A stretch of DNA of 19,179 nucleotides. Origin: Promethearchaeota archaeon (GTDB taxonomy: Archaea > Asgardarchaeota > Lokiarchaeia > Sigyniarchaeales > SOKP01). Of the stretch, positions 3,342 to 14,430 are shown piece after piece; position 1 is the stretch's first letter, and each line of letters starts with the position of its first letter. Where the stretch lies: contig SDNY01000070.1 of assembly GCA_004524535.1 (NCBI GenBank), positions 1 through 19,179 on the forward strand, read 5' to 3'. The notes under the pieces were generated by a model that made no database searches, was not told the DNA's origin, and saw nothing but the letters and a program-made list of their open reading frames with translations. Made by a program: the position numbers and the translations under genes.

Positions 3342-3650
3342 ATGAGCATAAAGCTTAAGAACTTGTTAAAGCCAGAAGTTGTTGAGATACTTAATGACAT
3401 AAAAAATTACATTAGCAGAAAAGATTACGATCCGACAGAAATCCTGCGTTGTAAATTATGTGAGATAAAAATAGAAAAGCCATCCCTTCCGTTTATTATC
3501 TGGAGTAAGAATCAAGAATATTTCTGCCCATTTCATTTACAGTGCGCAATAAAACCAGAGTGTGTCGATATTTTTATTATTAATGAAATAGGAGGAAATA
3601 TCGGTTATACATATAATATTGATAACAGCAACAAAGGTGAACGCAATTGA
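3342..3650 (+). CDS. Hypothetical Zn-finger protein (CxxC...HxxC, PARP-type zinc-finger-like)
   Basis: 'RCKLCEIKIEK...FCPFHLQC' has the C-x2-C-x3-I-x-K...H-x2-C spacing of zf-PARP-like fingers. Confidence 0.55.
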   Translation: MSIKLKNLLKPEVVEILNDIKNYISRKDYDPTEILRCKLCEIKIEKPSLPFIIWSKNQEYFCPFHLQCAIKPECVDIFIINEIGGNIGYTYNIDNSNKGERN

Positions 3651-4015
3651 TAGGCGAGGCAAGTGATCAATGCTTAAGTGTTCCTGATCTGAAAAAGATT
3701 TATAGAATATTGGGTGAAGAAGCGATAAAGAAGGCATACAAGGAACCTGAAGTGTCCTTGAAGAGAATAAAGACAAAAATTAAAGACATTATATGCATTG
3801 AAAAAGCCGAAAAAAGATTAAAAGACTTACGTTTTAAGCCTTATTTAAATCTCGGAGATTATATTGAACTTGAATTAGTGCTACGGGGGACTTTAGATAG
3901 AGATAAATGGAGATTTCTAAAGTATTATAGATTAAAATCTATGGTGAGAAAAATTGAATCGTTTTTGAACTCAATTTTCAAAAAATTTGATTATGTTATT
4001 ATTGCAGATGAATAA
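3647..4015 (+). CDS. Hypothetical protein
   Basis: 122-aa ORF with TTG start in a TTGA overlap with the upstream stop, and AGGTGA at 3635-3640. Confidence 0.7.
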   Translation: MIGEASDQCLSVPDLKKIYRILGEEAIKKAYKEPEVSLKRIKTKIKDIICIEKAEKRLKDLRFKPYLNLGDYIELELVLRGTLDRDKWRFLKYYRLKSMVRKIESFLNSIFKKFDYVIIADE

Positions 4016-7874: not shown

Positions 7875-9020
7875 TTAACCTTTATATTCAGGATTCGGTT
7901 TCCACTCTGGCAATTTATTTTTTGAGTATAAAATCGATGCACCAATCCAAGAGATATTTTCCCGACCAGAAGGAGCAATAATATTTAAATTACCTCTAAT
8001 TTTCTCAGAAAAATGTTTAGTCAATTCAAATTTTAATCTTTCTTTTAATCCGGGGATTAAGCTTCCTCCCCCTGCTAAGATAATATGTGGTATAATTTCT
8101 TCCCAATCCTCTCTATTCCATGACTTAATTACTTTTACTATTGCTTCTGGAATTCCAAAATAATCTATGTGAATCAATCTTGGATTAAATAGAGGTTCTG
8201 ATAACATAAATCGCTCTGCATCTATTTTTAGATTTGAACCATCTGGAAAATTAATTTCTTGGTCATAATTTGTAAGCCCTTCTTTTATATTCTTCTTTTC
8301 CTCTTCAGGATTTAAAACAATTAGAGCAGTTTTCTCTTTAATTTCTTTTGCAAGCCATTTATCAAGATAATATTTTTTACTCGAACTTTTATTGGTCAAA
8401 ACCATATTTAAAAAATGGTTAGTTAAATCTTTGCCTGAAATGGGAAAGAGGTCTCTTGCCATTATGTTAGTAAATCCATGAAAAATTGTGGAGATATAAG
8501 TATGGAAATCCCCTATATTAATGATAACTCCAGTTTCTTTTTGTAACGCTTGCATAATTGCTTGACTTTCAGATAGAAACAATAAATAAGGAAAGTTAAA
8601 ATCTTGAAAAAAAATTTGTTCTAATTTAGTTTTCTCCAATTCCGTGGTAAAAAAAGGAGTTATTATTATAATTGGTTGTTTAAATTGATTTTCAGGTAAG
8701 ATGTCTAATTTTTGATAATAATGATGGAAAAACTTTGATAAAATATAATAATTATTTTCTTTCTTGAACTCATGAATTTTTAAAATATTTTGATATTTTA
8801 ATGCATCTATTCCATATAAATGTCTTTCAGTATTTTTTCCAAAAAAAAGATCCTCAAGGCCATCAATTACATCTGATTCAAATATATTATCTGTAGCATC
8901 CACATAAACGCTAGGTGCAATAATTTCTGGCAAATCACTGCCAGCCCATCCTAAACGAAAATTACAATTCCCAATATCTAAAATCAATGGTCTTAATTGT
9001 TTGTTATCAACTGTTAACAT
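7875..9020 (-). CDS. Divergent actin-family (actin-related) protein
   Basis: Phosphate-1 'LILDIGNCNFRLGWAGSDLPEIIAPS', phosphate-2 'TGVIINIGD', 'SGKDLT', 'EIKEK', 'FPDG...ERFMLSEPLFNP', adenosine 'IILAGGGSLIPGLKERL' and 'SWIGASIL'. 381 aa, collinear with eukaryotic actin. Confidence 0.95.
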   Translation of the reverse strand: MLTVDNKQLRPLILDIGNCNFRLGWAGSDLPEIIAPSVYVDATDNIFESDVIDGLEDLFFGKNTERHLYGIDALKYQNILKIHEFKKENNYYILSKFFHHYYQKLDILPENQFKQPIIIITPFFTTELEKTKLEQIFFQDFNFPYLLFLSESQAIMQALQKETGVIINIGDFHTYISTIFHGFTNIMARDLFPISGKDLTNHFLNMVLTNKSSSKKYYLDKWLAKEIKEKTALIVLNPEEEKKNIKEGLTNYDQEINFPDGSNLKIDAERFMLSEPLFNPRLIHIDYFGIPEAIVKVIKSWNREDWEEIIPHIILAGGGSLIPGLKERLKFELTKHFSEKIRGNLNIIAPSGRENISWIGASILYSKNKLPEWKPNPEYKG

Positions 9021-10491: not shown

Positions 10492-12792
10492 TTATTCTTT
10501 ATGAGACTTTAATTTTACTGTAAGATCTCTTGCTCGCTTAGAATACCACACCAATAAATCCCCTGCATCTTCTGGCTTAAAATACTCGCCACCGCATAGA
10601 GCAGCAGCACGAGCCATAAGTTCATCATTTGGGTTCCCCAAACCGACTATATAAATGACAACATTCATATTCTCAGAGAATTTTTTAACAGATTCGAAGA
10701 AGGCATCTCCATCTGTAGGCTCCCCATCGGTAAGGAGGACAATCATGGTTGGCTGGTTCGGGCTTATGCGCTCAAATTCAGTAAGCACATAATGAGCCTG
10801 TTCCATAGATTTCCCCATCGCGGTTGCTTGGCCATAGCTATTTCCTATACGATCAACAATCATTCTCGCAGCCTCCTCTAAAATTCCTTTTTTACCACTT
10901 GCGGAATCCATGTAAAAACCACCTCCAAAAGGCAGTATTTGAGCTTCATCAGCAAATCGAATAACAGAAACTTTTTCTCCAAAACCACGACCCACTTTTT
11001 CACTTAGAAATAGAACTGCTGCGAACGCTGCTGAGATCCTTCGTGGAATATTAATCCCATCCTTGAAGTTTTTCAAAAATTCTTGAATTTCTCTGGATTC
11101 CATTGCTGCTTTAATACCTTCTATAGCAGGGGCTATGTTCGTGACAAGCACATCTCTTGCCATCATGCTTCGGCTTATATCAATTATCAAAATAGCGTTA
11201 AATGGTATCAAACCAGTTGGTGAAAGGGATAATGTGGTATTTGGCGTAATTTGAGCTAAAATATCACCTGTTAAGTCTGGAACACAACTAATAATGGAAC
11301 AAGCAATATTTACAGCAGTCCATCTTAATTTAATTCCCTTGAAAATTATATAGTTTGAAAGCCAATCTTTTAAAGCTACTACGCTATCTCTTGCACTACT
11401 TATAATTTCCCACATGTTTTCACCAGAAATCGGTGAAACACCTAAAGAAACACTTTGTAAAGGAATTATTTGCCTTTGATTTTTTGATAATTTTATTTCA
11501 TAGCTTCCAATTCCAGAAGCTTCTAAAATTTCGCTATCTATTATAACTACATTGTCAGGGACAGTCTCTACAATAGTCACCTTACCCGCTCCAATCGCTC
11601 CAGTTAGCTCATCTTCAAATGCTACAACATCATTATTTTGAATTGAAATAGTATGTTGAGTTCTTGGACTTACTTGGCAATAACCATTTAAGTTTGGTTG
11701 TGACTGAACTTCTAATACTATTTCGGAAGCTTTTTGTATTGGTGGTTCCGTAGAATAGACTACGATTTGTTCGGCATGAATATTTGTATCTTCTTTCGTA
11801 TCTTTACTCATTTTTATCTCTGTATAGCCAATTTGTGCTTGAGTTATTCTCGCTGAACCCATTGCTCTCGTTAAAGGATCTTCCCATGCTATTAACATTC
11901 CGTGTCCAAGGCCTAATTGTTGTAAAACATCATAACTTAGTTGTACTCGCCCTCCTTCTAAGTTTTCATCTACAACTGGGGTTAGAATTATACCATTTTT
12001 CTGACTGCTCAGCATATTTATATCAATTCTATTAGGATAGGGATCTACCGTTTCCATTGGAGCAATAGTTCCTTGCGCCGGTGTTGGTTGAGATATTGAG
12101 GATTGTTGGGTATAAGAAGAAGGAGGAGCACTCATTTGAGGTGCTGGTGTTGGCTGTGGTGCTGGTGTTAATTGTGGTGCTGGTGTTAATTGTGGTGCTG
12201 GTGTTGGTTGTGGTGCTGGTGTTAATTGTGGTGCTGGTGTTAATTGTGGTGCTGGTGTTGGTTGTGGTGCTGGTTTTAATTGTGGAGTTGTTGCAGGCTG
12301 AGGAGCTGGAGTAGGTTGAGGCATTGTTGCAGGCTGAGGAGCTGGAGTTGGTTGAGGTATTGTTGCAGGCTGAGGAGCTGGAGTAAGTTGAGGAGTTGGG
12401 GTAAGTTGAGGAGTTGGAGTAGGCTGAGGAGTAGGGGTAGTCTGAGATCCAACGCCAGGTAAATGGGCTTGTGGTGCCTGAAGTGTCTGCTGAGCTGGTG
12501 TAGCTGGTTGTGGTGCTTGCGAAGCGAATGGAGTAGTTATACTTGGTTTCACAATTATTTCTATTCCGTTAAATTCTATTTTATCAATAATATTTTTAGA
12601 AATTTGCCCCGCGAAATCTAGGGCATTATCGGAAACCTCAGCAATAGCAATAGCACTTTTTCCATTATCCGGATTTAATATTTCCAATGAATCACCATTC
12701 GAAATACCTAATTTGGTAGCATTAGTTTGATTTATAATGGCACGATCTGCTGTGTCCTCTTTAATATCAACAAAAATTTTTATTTCTGGCAT
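10492..12792 (-). CDS. vWA-domain protein with repeated Cdc48-N-like beta-barrel modules and a Pro/Gln/Thr-rich linker
   Basis: C-terminal MIDAS: DISRS, T in GQATAMG, D in LLTDG. Three similar modules (A.KLGISNGDSLEILNP; LQQLGLGHGMLIAWEDP; HTISIQNNDVVAFEDE) resemble double-psi beta-barrels. Confidence 0.85.
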   Translation of the reverse strand: MPEIKIFVDIKEDTADRAIINQTNATKLGISNGDSLEILNPDNGKSAIAIAEVSDNALDFAGQISKNIIDKIEFNGIEIIVKPSITTPFASQAPQPATPAQQTLQAPQAHLPGVGSQTTPTPQPTPTPQLTPTPQLTPAPQPATIPQPTPAPQPATMPQPTPAPQPATTPQLKPAPQPTPAPQLTPAPQLTPAPQPTPAPQLTPAPQLTPAPQPTPAPQMSAPPSSYTQQSSISQPTPAQGTIAPMETVDPYPNRIDINMLSSQKNGIILTPVVDENLEGGRVQLSYDVLQQLGLGHGMLIAWEDPLTRAMGSARITQAQIGYTEIKMSKDTKEDTNIHAEQIVVYSTEPPIQKASEIVLEVQSQPNLNGYCQVSPRTQHTISIQNNDVVAFEDELTGAIGAGKVTIVETVPDNVVIIDSEILEASGIGSYEIKLSKNQRQIIPLQSVSLGVSPISGENMWEIISSARDSVVALKDWLSNYIIFKGIKLRWTAVNIACSIISCVPDLTGDILAQITPNTTLSLSPTGLIPFNAILIIDISRSMMARDVLVTNIAPAIEGIKAAMESREIQEFLKNFKDGINIPRRISAAFAAVLFLSEKVGRGFGEKVSVIRFADEAQILPFGGGFYMDSASGKKGILEEAARMIVDRIGNSYGQATAMGKSMEQAHYVLTEFERISPNQPTMIVLLTDGEPTDGDAFFESVKKFSENMNVVIYIVGLGNPNDELMARAAALCGGEYFKPEDAGDLLVWYSKRARDLTVKLKSHKE
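12142..12429 (-). repeat. In-frame 18-bp tandem repeat, 16 units encoding PQ[PL][TA][PT]x
   Basis: Directly visible, e.g. (tgtggtgctggtgttaat)n on the + strand, with higher-order 36-bp and 54-bp periodicities. Confidence 0.95.
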
Positions 12793-13023
12793 TATTATTC
12801 AACTAGTTTCTTTTTTTCTGTAAAAGTTAAGTTACTAATAATTTTTAAAAGAAACATCTATAATTAAATTTTGATATTGTTTTTAAAAATTAATATATTG
12901 TAAATAGGATTTAAATTTTTAAATAATTTTAGTTGGTTTAAATTTATCTTGAATTTTAAAAAATTGCTAATTCTTCTTAGCCATCTCAGATAATCGATTT
13001 TGACGAGGAGGCTATAGTTATTG

Positions 13024-13442
13024 CTATAAAGGGGGATAGCGTTTACCTATCTCAGACGAATAGTAACGGAAAACGGTGACAACTTTCCCAAGATCCTGAA
13101 TTTTTCGGGATGCTCCCATAAGAAAAAAGCGACCGGCAGCGCTGAGTATAATGAATGCGTCTTCTCCTCTTAATACGACTTCTAGCATATTGTGAAAACC
13201 CAGTGTATCAATAGCATCTGAACCACTCTTCATGACAACGGCGCTTAAACTTGAAAATAAATCTGGGTCAACCTCATAGCTTGGAATGCAGCTAAAGGCC
13301 AATTGTAGCCCCTCCGTAGTCACTAGTGCGAGTGCTTCTAGTTCTGTATGTTCCGGTATATTGGCATATGTCAATATAATTCCGTTATGTTCCCCAAGAA
13401 GCTTGATAGACTTGTGGCCTCGTCGGGCGTTAAACTAACCAT
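13024..13442 (-). CDS. Roadblock/LC7 (MglB-like) protein, split by a 29-nt insert; join(13380..13442,13024..13350), 129 aa
   Basis: 'LEALALVTTEGL...DPDLFSSLSAVV...LG...LEVVLRGEDAFIILSAAGRFFLM...DLG' is a Roadblock pattern. The missing first helix (MVSLTPDEATSLSSFLGNITE) is encoded from ATG 13442 in another frame. Confidence 0.85.
13351..13379 (-). other. Candidate 29-nt BHB-like (relaxed) intron in the Roadblock gene
   Basis: mRNA ACGG|AA^U|UAUAUUG-ACAUAUGC-CAAUAUA|CCGG|AA^C. Cutting after the 2nd nt of each 3-nt bulge removes 29 nt, deletes an in-frame TGA and fuses the two frames. Confidence 0.6.
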
Positions 13443-13554
13443 ATCAATCTTTTTTTTTTGTTTTTCATAATTGGTTTATATTAATAATATTATGAGTTTT
13501 AAACTTAAAAATGTATAGTTCTAAATGGAGTATTAATCATTAAATAGGAAACCA

Positions 13555-14430
13555 CTACTTTTTATTTCCGAGTTGTATTTTTATTTGATCTTTGAGAATT
13601 TGCTTTTTATCTTTATATTCTACCGGCTTTTTTCCTCCTGCACTCTTAGAAGCTTTTAAAAATTCAATTGCAACAACTTTTCCATTTTCTGAGAGCACTC
13701 GTGGAGAATAACCTTCCGCAAAGAAAACTCCTTCTGGGATTGATCCTACTTCTTCAATTTTTTTCTCAATCTGTTTTTCTCCTAAGAAAGTTGTAACTTT
13801 CTCGACAACAGAGTAAGCGTGGTTTCCGATTATTATTAATTCTCTTTCATAACCATCGGGAATTTGTATTTCATCTAATTTTTGAATAATTTGATCAAAC
13901 TTAATTGTCGGTTCTTCTTGGGTATAACTTTGCATTGATTCTTTTCCGGTGTATAAAGGACCTGTATTTTGACCCATGCGTTGTGTACTTCCAGCAATAT
14001 TCATTCCTTGGGCGGGTTCTGGTGGGTCAAATATGGGTTTTTCCCTTAATGGATGACCTCCTCCAGCTGAACCTCCGGCTGGTGCTCCAGCCGCTGCTTT
14101 TTCTTCTTTAATTTCTTTTGCAATACCCGCTTCGGTTTTACCACCAATCAAATTTAGAAAATCATCAGTTTCCTCGCTTTCATCAAGTGGTACAACTGCA
14201 TAATGCATTCCAACCTGACCTCGAATTTCTTGACTTCTTTTCGCTCCTATAAATTTCGATCTTACAGAACTGGCAATTCCCTTCCATAGAAATACTTTTC
14301 GTATATCATCAGCTACAATAACATAACATTCATCTGTTTTAAGGATATCCTTAACGGCTCCATCTGATGTTAGTTCTGTTGTCGTACCATCTGGATTGAT
14401 TAAAAACACCTGTAAACCCAATTTCCTCAA
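13555..14430 (-). CDS. Single gelsolin-domain protein with linker and C-terminal domain of unknown function
   Basis: 'ILKTDECYVIV...KVFLWKGIASSVRSKFIGAKRSQEI...LDESEETDDFLNL' is a gelsolin-repeat signature. A Gly/Pro/Ala linker and a second globular domain follow. Confidence 0.85.
   Translation of the reverse strand: MRKLGLQVFLINPDGTTTELTSDGAVKDILKTDECYVIVADDIRKVFLWKGIASSVRSKFIGAKRSQEIRGQVGMHYAVVPLDESEETDDFLNLIGGKTEAGIAKEIKEEKAAAGAPAGGSAGGGHPLREKPIFDPPEPAQGMNIAGSTQRMGQNTGPLYTGKESMQSYTQEEPTIKFDQIIQKLDEIQIPDGYERELIIIGNHAYSVVEKVTTFLGEKQIEKKIEEVGSIPEGVFFAEGYSPRVLSENGKVVAIEFLKASKSAGGKKPVEYKDKKQILKDQIKIQLGNKK

Follow-up and report, generated by a model that had tools for sequence, protein, structure and literature searches.

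What happens to a gene whose reading frame is broken 21 codons after its start, in a lineage where the same gene is otherwise kept intact? This question is raised by a Roadblock/LC7 gene on the minus strand of contig C169 of genome G000, which is divided by a 29-nt insert (13379..13351). The window analysed is the whole stretch of 19,179 nt, and G000 is a metagenome assembly of 3.66 Mb in 198 contigs, 99% complete and with 30% G+C. An initial annotation of this DNA had proposed that the insert is an mRNA intron of the bulge-helix-bulge (BHB) type in an Asgard Roadblock gene. The Asgard assignment fits, the relatives being metagenome-assembled genomes of Promethearchaeota, Promethearchaeia or Hermodarchaeota, and the window contains an actin gene. 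The intron proposal itself is supported by the borders of the insert, the splicing enzymes of the host, the layout of its tRNA introns, sister inserts in other genes, and selection and covariation in relatives. We consider it probable that the 29 nt are a spliced BHB intron, of the relaxed HBh' type, within the Roadblock/LC7 coding sequence, and we infer that cleavage and ligation take place in the cell.

Once 13379..13351 is taken out, the gene becomes a continuous frame of 129 codons, 21 from exon 1 and 108 from exon 2, exactly as had been claimed, and the elements described with that claim (the hairpin, the ACGG + AAU before it, the CCGG + AAC after it, and the mutually out-of-frame open reading frames, ORFs) are all present. 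A comparison with related genomes, which had been recommended as a check, was carried out over 60 genomes (G000 and 59 relatives), with the 29 best orthologous loci examined. The Roadblock gene is present in 57 of the 60, the three genomes without it being 61–79% complete. The insert is found in 0/29 loci, and there are no extra residues in its place: every locus reads straight from ...ITE into H/YTELEALAL..., as ...NITE|HTELEA... or ...SITE|YTELEA..., with the start codon exactly 21 codons ahead of the junction in 29/29 and proteins of 127–131 amino acids. When the two pieces of the window are aligned with 25 orthologues (26 rows in total), they abut at residue 21|22 with neither gap nor overlap, and exon 2 is 72–89% identical to its orthologues. 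The exon-2 ORF matches Pfam PF03259 with E 3.7e-5 and 23.8 bits over profile positions 12–87, marginal but above the cut-off of 23, and an intact orthologue reaches 24.9 bits over residues 16–99, likewise marginal and above the cut-off. The borders defined by the 29 orthologues, and again by two near strains, are the same as the cuts predicted by the BHB rule and are fixed up to a 5-nt repeat, CGGAA.

The insert is also found independently of the deposited assembly. Contigs (not raw reads) of four public runs were placed on positions 12700–14100. The likely source run, X1, gave an independently assembled contig of 4093 nt at depth 54 with 0 differences from the window, insert included, and its contigs contain the insert-bearing allele only. 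X2, from another study, and X4, from another sample of the source study, contain a strain about 6–7% different that lacks exactly 29 nt at 13351. The insert is real, strain-specific and recent, its young age following from its absence in these near strains. No second copy was found in G000 by a blastn-short search of the whole genome, where the best other matches were 14 nt exact. A transposon-like miniature element with a target-site duplication was considered and rejected on account of this single copy and of the eight sister introns described below, seven of which have no flanking repeat of three bases or more (the exception is the ATG repeat of the synthetase intron). The same count led us to reject the reading of CGGAA as a target-site duplication; as the sister introns are mostly without flanking repeats, we attribute CGGAA to the self-complementary CCGG helix together with the two AA bulges.

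The predicted fold of the transcript places the insert in the HBh' class. Two 3-nt bulges, AAU and AAC, lie on opposite strands around the central helix (H/H'), and the inner helix h' directly adjoins H/H' (Table 1). Both h' and a displaced exon-exon helix appear in the minimum free energy (MFE) and centroid folds; in the MFE fold, the CGG/CCG pairs stack on the hairpin, leave a 5' bulge of 3 nt and are enclosed by the distant 6-bp exon-exon helix. With each bulge cut behind its second base, exactly the insert defined by the orthologues would be removed. This rule, on which the initial annotation relied, agrees with the canonical tRNA-Pro intron of G000, where the cut after position 37 falls behind the second bulge nucleotide. 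By itself the motif is weak, because its class (Watson-Crick pairing, with at least 3/4 pairs in H and 7 bp or more in the inner helix) has 15,132 instances in G000 at lengths of 12–120, and a 2026 preprint, in its accessible part, regards 'relaxed' BHB calls as permissive. With the borders fixed by the orthologues, a fraction of 9.5e-5 of 200,000 shuffled inserts give the motif; when the 22-nt hairpin is left intact and randomisation is confined to its placement and the other 7 nt, the share is 2.2%. The near intron-less strains have U at G13383, which would face C13355 in a non-standard pair; this exon difference is suggestive, and we do not count it as evidence. The last 15 nt of the insert (13351..13365) match the last 15 nt of exon 1 (13380..13394) at 11/15 positions, a resemblance through which the 5' hairpin arm can pair with the exon too, as an alternative fold. 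Because the similarity to the exon is confined to these 15 nt, an origin of the insert by tandem duplication was set aside.

We propose that, in the transcript, exon ACGG would pair with intron CCGG and that the 7-bp intron hairpin would stack on this central helix, itself lying between the 3-nt bulges AA|U and AA|C. A two-subunit (alpha-beta)2 splicing endonuclease would cut after the second base of each bulge and RtcB would join the exons. The spliced message would then be translated into the 129-residue protein that relatives encode uninterrupted, and unspliced RNA would yield a 23-residue peptide only. The genome encodes candidates for both enzymes. Two splicing-endonuclease genes, on contigs C100 and C84, match PF01974, with 107.9 and 70.7 bits. 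The first protein has Tyr/His/Lys, which we take to be the catalytic triad of EndA, and its best matches are the catalytic chains of heterotetrameric crenarchaeal enzymes (3p1z_B, 3ajv_B, 2zyz_B); the second has Ser where Methanocaldococcus jannaschii EndA has His. Judging from their sequences, the two fit an (alpha-beta)2 enzyme with one catalytic and one structural subunit. The accessible part of a published study attributes to Asgard archaea an (alpha-beta)2 EndA whose L1 loop confers broad specificity (PMC5829648). An RtcB ligase gene (PF01139, E 1.5e-168) is located on contig C101 at 22508-23815 (+). The intron-bearing gene on the same contig ends about 260 nt upstream of it.

The tRNA genes of G000 offer a direct comparison for the layout. 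The tRNA models gave 21 matches, 15 of them above the cut-off, a low number that would follow from interruption of most tRNA genes. Eight tRNAs were recognised by ARAGORN only once one BHB candidate had been removed, and eight further loci were still not recognised after removal of up to three candidate introns. Four of the eight verified introns (Arg, Cys, Glu, Gln) are 28–30 nt long and of the HBh' type without outer helix. The one in tRNA-Arg(tcg) measures 29 nt, arranged 1+7+8+7+4+2 without outer helix, which is exactly the layout of the Roadblock insert. The first two positions of the 3' bulge are AA in 5/8 verified tRNA introns (6/8 with tRNA-Gln in an alternative 30-nt register) and in 7/9 protein-gene introns of G000. 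This check admitted central helices with 4/4 pairs only.

The Roadblock insert does not stand alone, and it probably belongs to a population of 29–36-nt introns sharing the same layout, in tRNA genes and in at least nine protein-coding genes. Candidates in protein genes were sought as BHB-like motifs that, once excised, leave two open frames joined; this search gives thousands of chance hits, few of which join conserved protein motifs. Twelve candidates were compared with orthologues, over 20 genomes each (G000 and 19 relatives), and nine of them, Roadblock included, were confirmed as inserts absent from the orthologues (Table 1). The 30-nt inserts preserve the frame but contain stop codons. 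Five introns were found in G000 only; the orthologues are continuous in 11/11, 6/6 alignable, 11/11, 10/10 and 11/11 cases, and the rule-predicted cuts rebuild the orthologue codon each time (GAT, GAT, AGA/CGA, TTT and GAT). In all nine, the intron tetramer ahead of the 3' bulge is the complement of the exon tetramer ahead of the 5' bulge, while the stems share no sequence, each intron being 'tailored' to its site. A 3/4 central helix with an A.G mismatch, as in Roadblock, also occurs in the synthetase intron, in the AOR intron (with the same exon tetramer, ACGG) and in an aldolase intron of genome G010. The three remaining candidates were rejected: the stretch C112 27759..27731 is coding and conserved in orthologues, the Alba stretch C58 8374..8346 is present in all orthologues and coding in another frame, and the GTPase gene at C115 28390..28421 is intact without excision.

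A codon-usage score used as a filter gave values of 0.01–0.42 for the known introns, with no separation; the length spectrum of strong motifs has no peak at 29–30 nt; and a screen for contiguity with paralogues matched 24/2224 candidate rows, mostly noise such as antisense frames and one-sided similarity, but also including candidates on C83, C15, C152, C147 and C151. As the screens are insensitive, the real number of intron-bearing protein genes in G000, at least nine, is probably several times higher.

Among the relatives, we counted twelve distinct intron sites in nine gene families, some of them common to several genomes. The AMP-binding synthetase intron occupies the same site in G000, G002, G005 and G004 and is absent in G008, G009 and G010. 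Both exons are fully open in 4/4 carriers, between which the ratio of nonsynonymous to synonymous substitution rates (dN/dS) is 0.03–0.07, with dS from 0.68 to saturation, which points to purifying selection on the host gene. The loop of this intron differs at 3–5 of 5 positions and the stems, H' and bulges at about 1 of 25; no covariation was found in it. The aldolase intron is common to G000, G005 and G011, the last belonging to another genus, and 3/13 of its pairs show compensatory double changes. Of these, one affects helix H itself: a synonymous change in the exon is accompanied by an intron change that keeps the exon-intron pair. Overall, 97% of cells are paired, vs 28–41% when the partners are slid.

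The positions of the introns point to insertion hot spots in conserved motifs. In the N-terminal Cys motif of CO dehydrogenase, YMPICDMCCLCT(F/Y)GKCNL, G000 and G007 have different introns at one site, a second G007 intron lies 18 nt further on and a G010 intron lies 8 nt from the first site, giving three intron sites within about 30 nt. Every best-scoring BHB excision restores the motif exactly, and that of the second G007 intron is the best of 888 frame-restoring excisions. Introns also sit at a second position in the aldolase gene, IAGG|KK, in G010 and G011; these were detected via stop codons, not via the motif. Turnover is fast, as indicated by G008: this closest relative, whose compared protein pieces are 95–100% identical, is without all 7/7 comparable introns, two of which are common to G000 and more distant genomes. 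These absences imply that, within a short time, introns were either lost precisely or acquired laterally. Taken together, these observations make it likely that the lineage harbours a whole population of BHB mini-introns of 29–36 nt in its protein genes, with fast gain and loss, hot spots and removal by the tRNA endonuclease and RtcB.

Table 1. Parts of the interrupted Roadblock/LC7 gene and inserts confirmed by orthologues in other protein genes of G000. Contig C169 is the window.
Feature	Contig	Coordinates	Strand	Description
Insert (Roadblock)	C169	13351..13379	-	29 nt; 1 nt + 7-bp arm + 8-nt loop + 7-bp arm + 4-nt H' + 2 bulge nt
Exon 1	C169	13380..13442	-	ATG 13442 to GAA 13382-13380, 21 codons, MVSLTPDEATSLSSFLGNITE; N-terminal helix of the Roadblock fold
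Exon 2	C169	13024..13350	-	CAT 13350-13348 to stop TAG 13026-13024; 108 codons; Roadblock/LC7 body
Unspliced-message product (predicted)	C169	13371..13442	-	23-residue ORF MVSLTPDEATSLSSFLGNITELY from ATG 13442; stop TGA 13373-13371
Roadblock body ORF	C169	13374..13024	-	116 residues from TTG; frame differs from that of the 23-residue ORF
Exon strand of central helix (H)	C169	13382..13385	-	ACGG; 3/4 pairs with CCGG 13356-13353, mismatch A13385.G13353
Intron strand of central helix (H')	C169	13353..13356	-	CCGG
5' bulge	C169	13379..13381	-	AA|U; predicted cut after 13380
3' bulge	C169	13350..13352	-	AA|C; predicted cut after 13351
Inner helix (h') and loop	C169	13357..13378	-	UAUAUUG 13378-13372, loop ACAUAUGC 13371-13364, CAAUAUA 13363-13357; seven Watson-Crick pairs
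Displaced exon-exon helix	C169	13334..13402	-	6 bp, GCUUCU 13402-13397 with AGAAGC 13339-13334; encloses the motif
AMP-binding synthetase	C74	9899..9870	-	30 nt; named from Pfam of exon 2
Prismane/CO dehydrogenase	C100	12033..12004	-	30 nt; named from Pfam of exon 2
MoxR-type AAA_3 ATPase	C26	5968..5940	-	29 nt; named from Pfam of exon 2
BcrAD_BadFG ATPase	C65	33272..33300	+	29 nt; named from Pfam of exon 2
Unnamed protein	C101	21656..21685	+	30 nt
POR family protein	C189	15064..15035	-	30 nt; named from Pfam of exon 2
AOR-like protein	C144	21930..21959	+	30 nt; named from paralogue alignment, not Pfam
Aldolase-like protein	C16	3517..3548	+	32 nt; named from paralogue alignment, not Pfam

Several observations weigh against a spliced intron in the Roadblock gene. 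The canonical four-pair central helix is absent, ACGG/CCGG forming 3/4 pairs with an A.G mismatch, and the outer helix has length 0 at the predicted register. GCUUCU/AGAAGC lies 11–12 nt away and is not the 'h' helix of the canonical motif, because it is not adjacent to the bulges. The initial annotation had conceded both the mismatch and the displaced exon-exon helix, rightly on our data. Energetically, the fold of the region does not stand out (z = -0.97). The Roadblock intron is a single sequence, unique to one genome, and there is consequently no support from selection or covariation specific to it; the covariation in the aldolase intron comes from three sequences only and is reached by 16/500 shuffles. 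The sister introns were obtained mostly via the BHB pre-filter, which means that their geometry is in part a product of that selection; exceptions, detected by homology, are the second CO-dehydrogenase intron of G007 and the aldolase introns of G010 and G011. The scan for other frames repaired by BHB cuts, also recommended at the outset, had a mixed outcome: it added the eight inserts confirmed by orthologues, but genome-wide the BHB excisions that restore an ORF are in no excess over decoy cuts (L+/-1, +/-2) in any class or at any length (for example, 311 true vs 302–323 decoys; 5 and 6 vs 3–8 for L = 29 or 30). Gene boundaries swamp this statistic, and it leaves the class neither supported nor excluded. 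Finally, the contigs of the RNA run X24 cover positions 12700-12803 and 13928-14100 only, outside the Roadblock gene.

Could the insert be a young disabling insertion, that is, a BHB-like hairpin element rarely or never removed, the gene being a fresh pseudogene or strongly down-tuned? The insert is present in G000 only and strains 93–94% identical are without it, a pattern that a young disabling insertion would share; with strains so near lacking it, further decay would have had no time to set in and selection offers no test. The mismatch in the central helix and the missing outer helix are in keeping with this explanation, and a paralogous Roadblock gene on contig C22 of G000 might cover the loss. 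Against it, the presence of the gene in 57/60 genomes and its uninterrupted state in 29/29 loci suggest that loss of Roadblock is selected against. Like inserts occur in eight other genes of a 99% complete genome, including CO dehydrogenase, POR, AOR and aldolase, which are hardly all dead. Introns with the same 3/4 helix are conserved, with a host-gene dN/dS of 0.03–0.07, and the insert-bearing allele is alone in the X1 contigs at depth 54. We therefore regard a disabling insertion as unlikely.

Programmed translational bypassing, known from T4 gene 60 and from the mitochondrial 'byp' inserts of 27–55 nt, would give the same protein without splicing, through take-off at GAA 13382-13380 and landing on the identical GAA 13353-13351, 29 nt downstream. 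The Roadblock insert resembles these inserts in being a short, hairpin-bearing, non-coding stretch within a coding sequence with identical flanking codons: the CGGAA direct repeat supplies matching take-off and landing codons, the hairpin follows the take-off site and a stop comes two codons downstream. Bypassing acts on the ribosome and not on the RNA, however, and most sister inserts are without matching flanking codons (for example, CCA|...|ATT in CO dehydrogenase and GAA|...|AAG in MoxR), several even splitting a codon (G|AT, AG|A, T|TT); what all the inserts have in common is BHB geometry, as in the tRNA introns. We know of no report of bypassing in archaea, and we find this explanation very hard to sustain.

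It is more doubtful still that the gene encodes a shorter protein of 116 residues without the first helix, started at the in-frame TTG 13374 inside the insert, with the 23-residue ORF as a relic. The frame is indeed open from this TTG, but exon 1 has kept its ATG and is still identical to the closest orthologue at 19/21 residues, in the intact orthologue the Pfam domain already starts at residue 16, ahead of the junction, and no obvious ribosome-binding motif was seen by eye before the TTG. An AlphaFold model of the orthologue computed with an alignment and of moderate confidence (predicted local distance difference test, pLDDT, 69; predicted template modelling score, pTM, 0.64) has a helix at residues 6–22; the single-sequence model was unusable (pLDDT 43.5). 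Given this modelled helix and the start of the Pfam domain, a protein begun inside the insert would be without its first helix. An assembly or sequencing artefact, in the form of a spurious palindromic insertion, might be suspected in a 198-contig metagenome assembly compared with other runs as contigs rather than raw reads, but it is just as improbable, as the likely source run, assembled independently, gives the identical sequence at depth 54 and inserts of the same kind are present at matching sites in the independently assembled G002, G004, G005, G007, G010 and G011.

The preferred reading, a spliced BHB intron, can be set against known systems. The pre-mRNA intron of cbf5 in Crenarchaeota (Watanabe 2002; Yokobori 2009, PMC2738675) is described in the accessible part of the latter paper as 16–44 bp long, often with a relaxed motif, and as occurring in hosts with a heteromeric endonuclease. 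The available text of a later article names it as the only coding-region BHB case as of 2020, beside a 5'-untranslated region (UTR) intron in Haloferax (PMC7714728). On these partial accounts, the Roadblock insert, at 29 nt, is like cbf5 a short BHB intron in a coding sequence, with the relaxed motif often seen there, in a host with a hetero-oligomeric endonuclease, present or absent among close relatives, and mistaken by annotators for a frameshift. It differs in lying in an Asgard archaeon and not in a crenarchaeon, and in a different gene. As far as those sources go, cbf5 is also a single gene per genome, whereas G000 has at least nine such genes, with several sites per gene among relatives, and splicing of cbf5 was demonstrated experimentally, whereas for Roadblock we infer it.

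The other archaeal mRNA case is the 46-nt BHB intron of Haloferax volcanii HVO_1309, located in the 5' UTR, conserved in haloarchaea and, according to the accessible portion of the article, documented by circular RNA sequencing (circRNA-seq) and in vitro cleavage (PMC7714728). It too is a BHB element in an mRNA, there processed by the tRNA splicing endonuclease; it sits in an untranslated leader, whereas the Roadblock insert is in coding sequence. The 2026 preprint, as far as its text was available, reports repeated BHB intron gains in Asgard tRNA genes and deals with tRNA genes only. The Roadblock insert has in common with the tRNA introns of G000 an identical layout and size, as for the 29 nt of tRNA-Arg(tcg), and with the Asgard tRNA introns, as that text presents them, recurrent lineage-specific gains with no identifiable source copy. 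It is unlike the tRNA introns in having one mismatch in its central helix, a comparison limited by the restriction of our tRNA check to 4/4 helices; and, as its host is an mRNA, its excision must restore a reading frame. A full-text literature search, with supplements outside its reach, returned no report of BHB introns in Asgard protein genes in the text it covered. As a relaxed BHB intron, the Roadblock insert departs from the known cases in its host lineage and its gene and, most of all, in how many such introns accompany it. A 'splicing-controlled' regulation of the gene, as also suggested in the initial annotation, is pure inference.

The surroundings of the gene can be described briefly. 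The Roadblock gene is 4 kb away from an actin-family gene (7875..9020, minus strand; PF00022, E 1.9e-46). Directly upstream is a gene for a 291-residue protein (13555..14430, minus strand) for which the Pfam search gave no match, and whose N-terminus may resemble those of gelsolin/cofilin-like Asgard proteins. Downstream, a 766-residue protein (10492..12792, minus strand) carries a VWA domain at its C-terminus, along with a long repeat rich in proline (PQPTPAPQ...). Another BHB-like candidate of 34 nt, with H at 3/4 pairs and an inner helix of 7 bp, is present at 3950..3983 on the plus strand, near the end of the ORF 3647..4015; its excision would lengthen the frame by 73 codons, and it may be due to chance.

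Introns in protein-coding genes are a hallmark of eukaryotes. If the inserts are spliced, interruption by enzyme-spliced introns is routine in an Asgard archaeon, both in genes of central metabolism and in eukaryote-signature genes such as Roadblock, relaxed motifs are tolerated, and introns turn over within species-level time. The known substrate range of the (alpha-beta)2 endonuclease would widen, and current annotation would call intron-bearing Asgard genes frameshifted or split. The complementarity of the intron 3' end to the four preceding exon bases constrains any model of how these introns arrive. If the existence of the whole intron population holds true, this would be the first prokaryote known to have widespread split protein genes, placed among the closest archaeal relatives of eukaryotes, and the unknown process that fills tRNA genes with introns would also seed mRNAs. 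The tolerance of gene interruption in a cell without a nucleus would then become directly testable.

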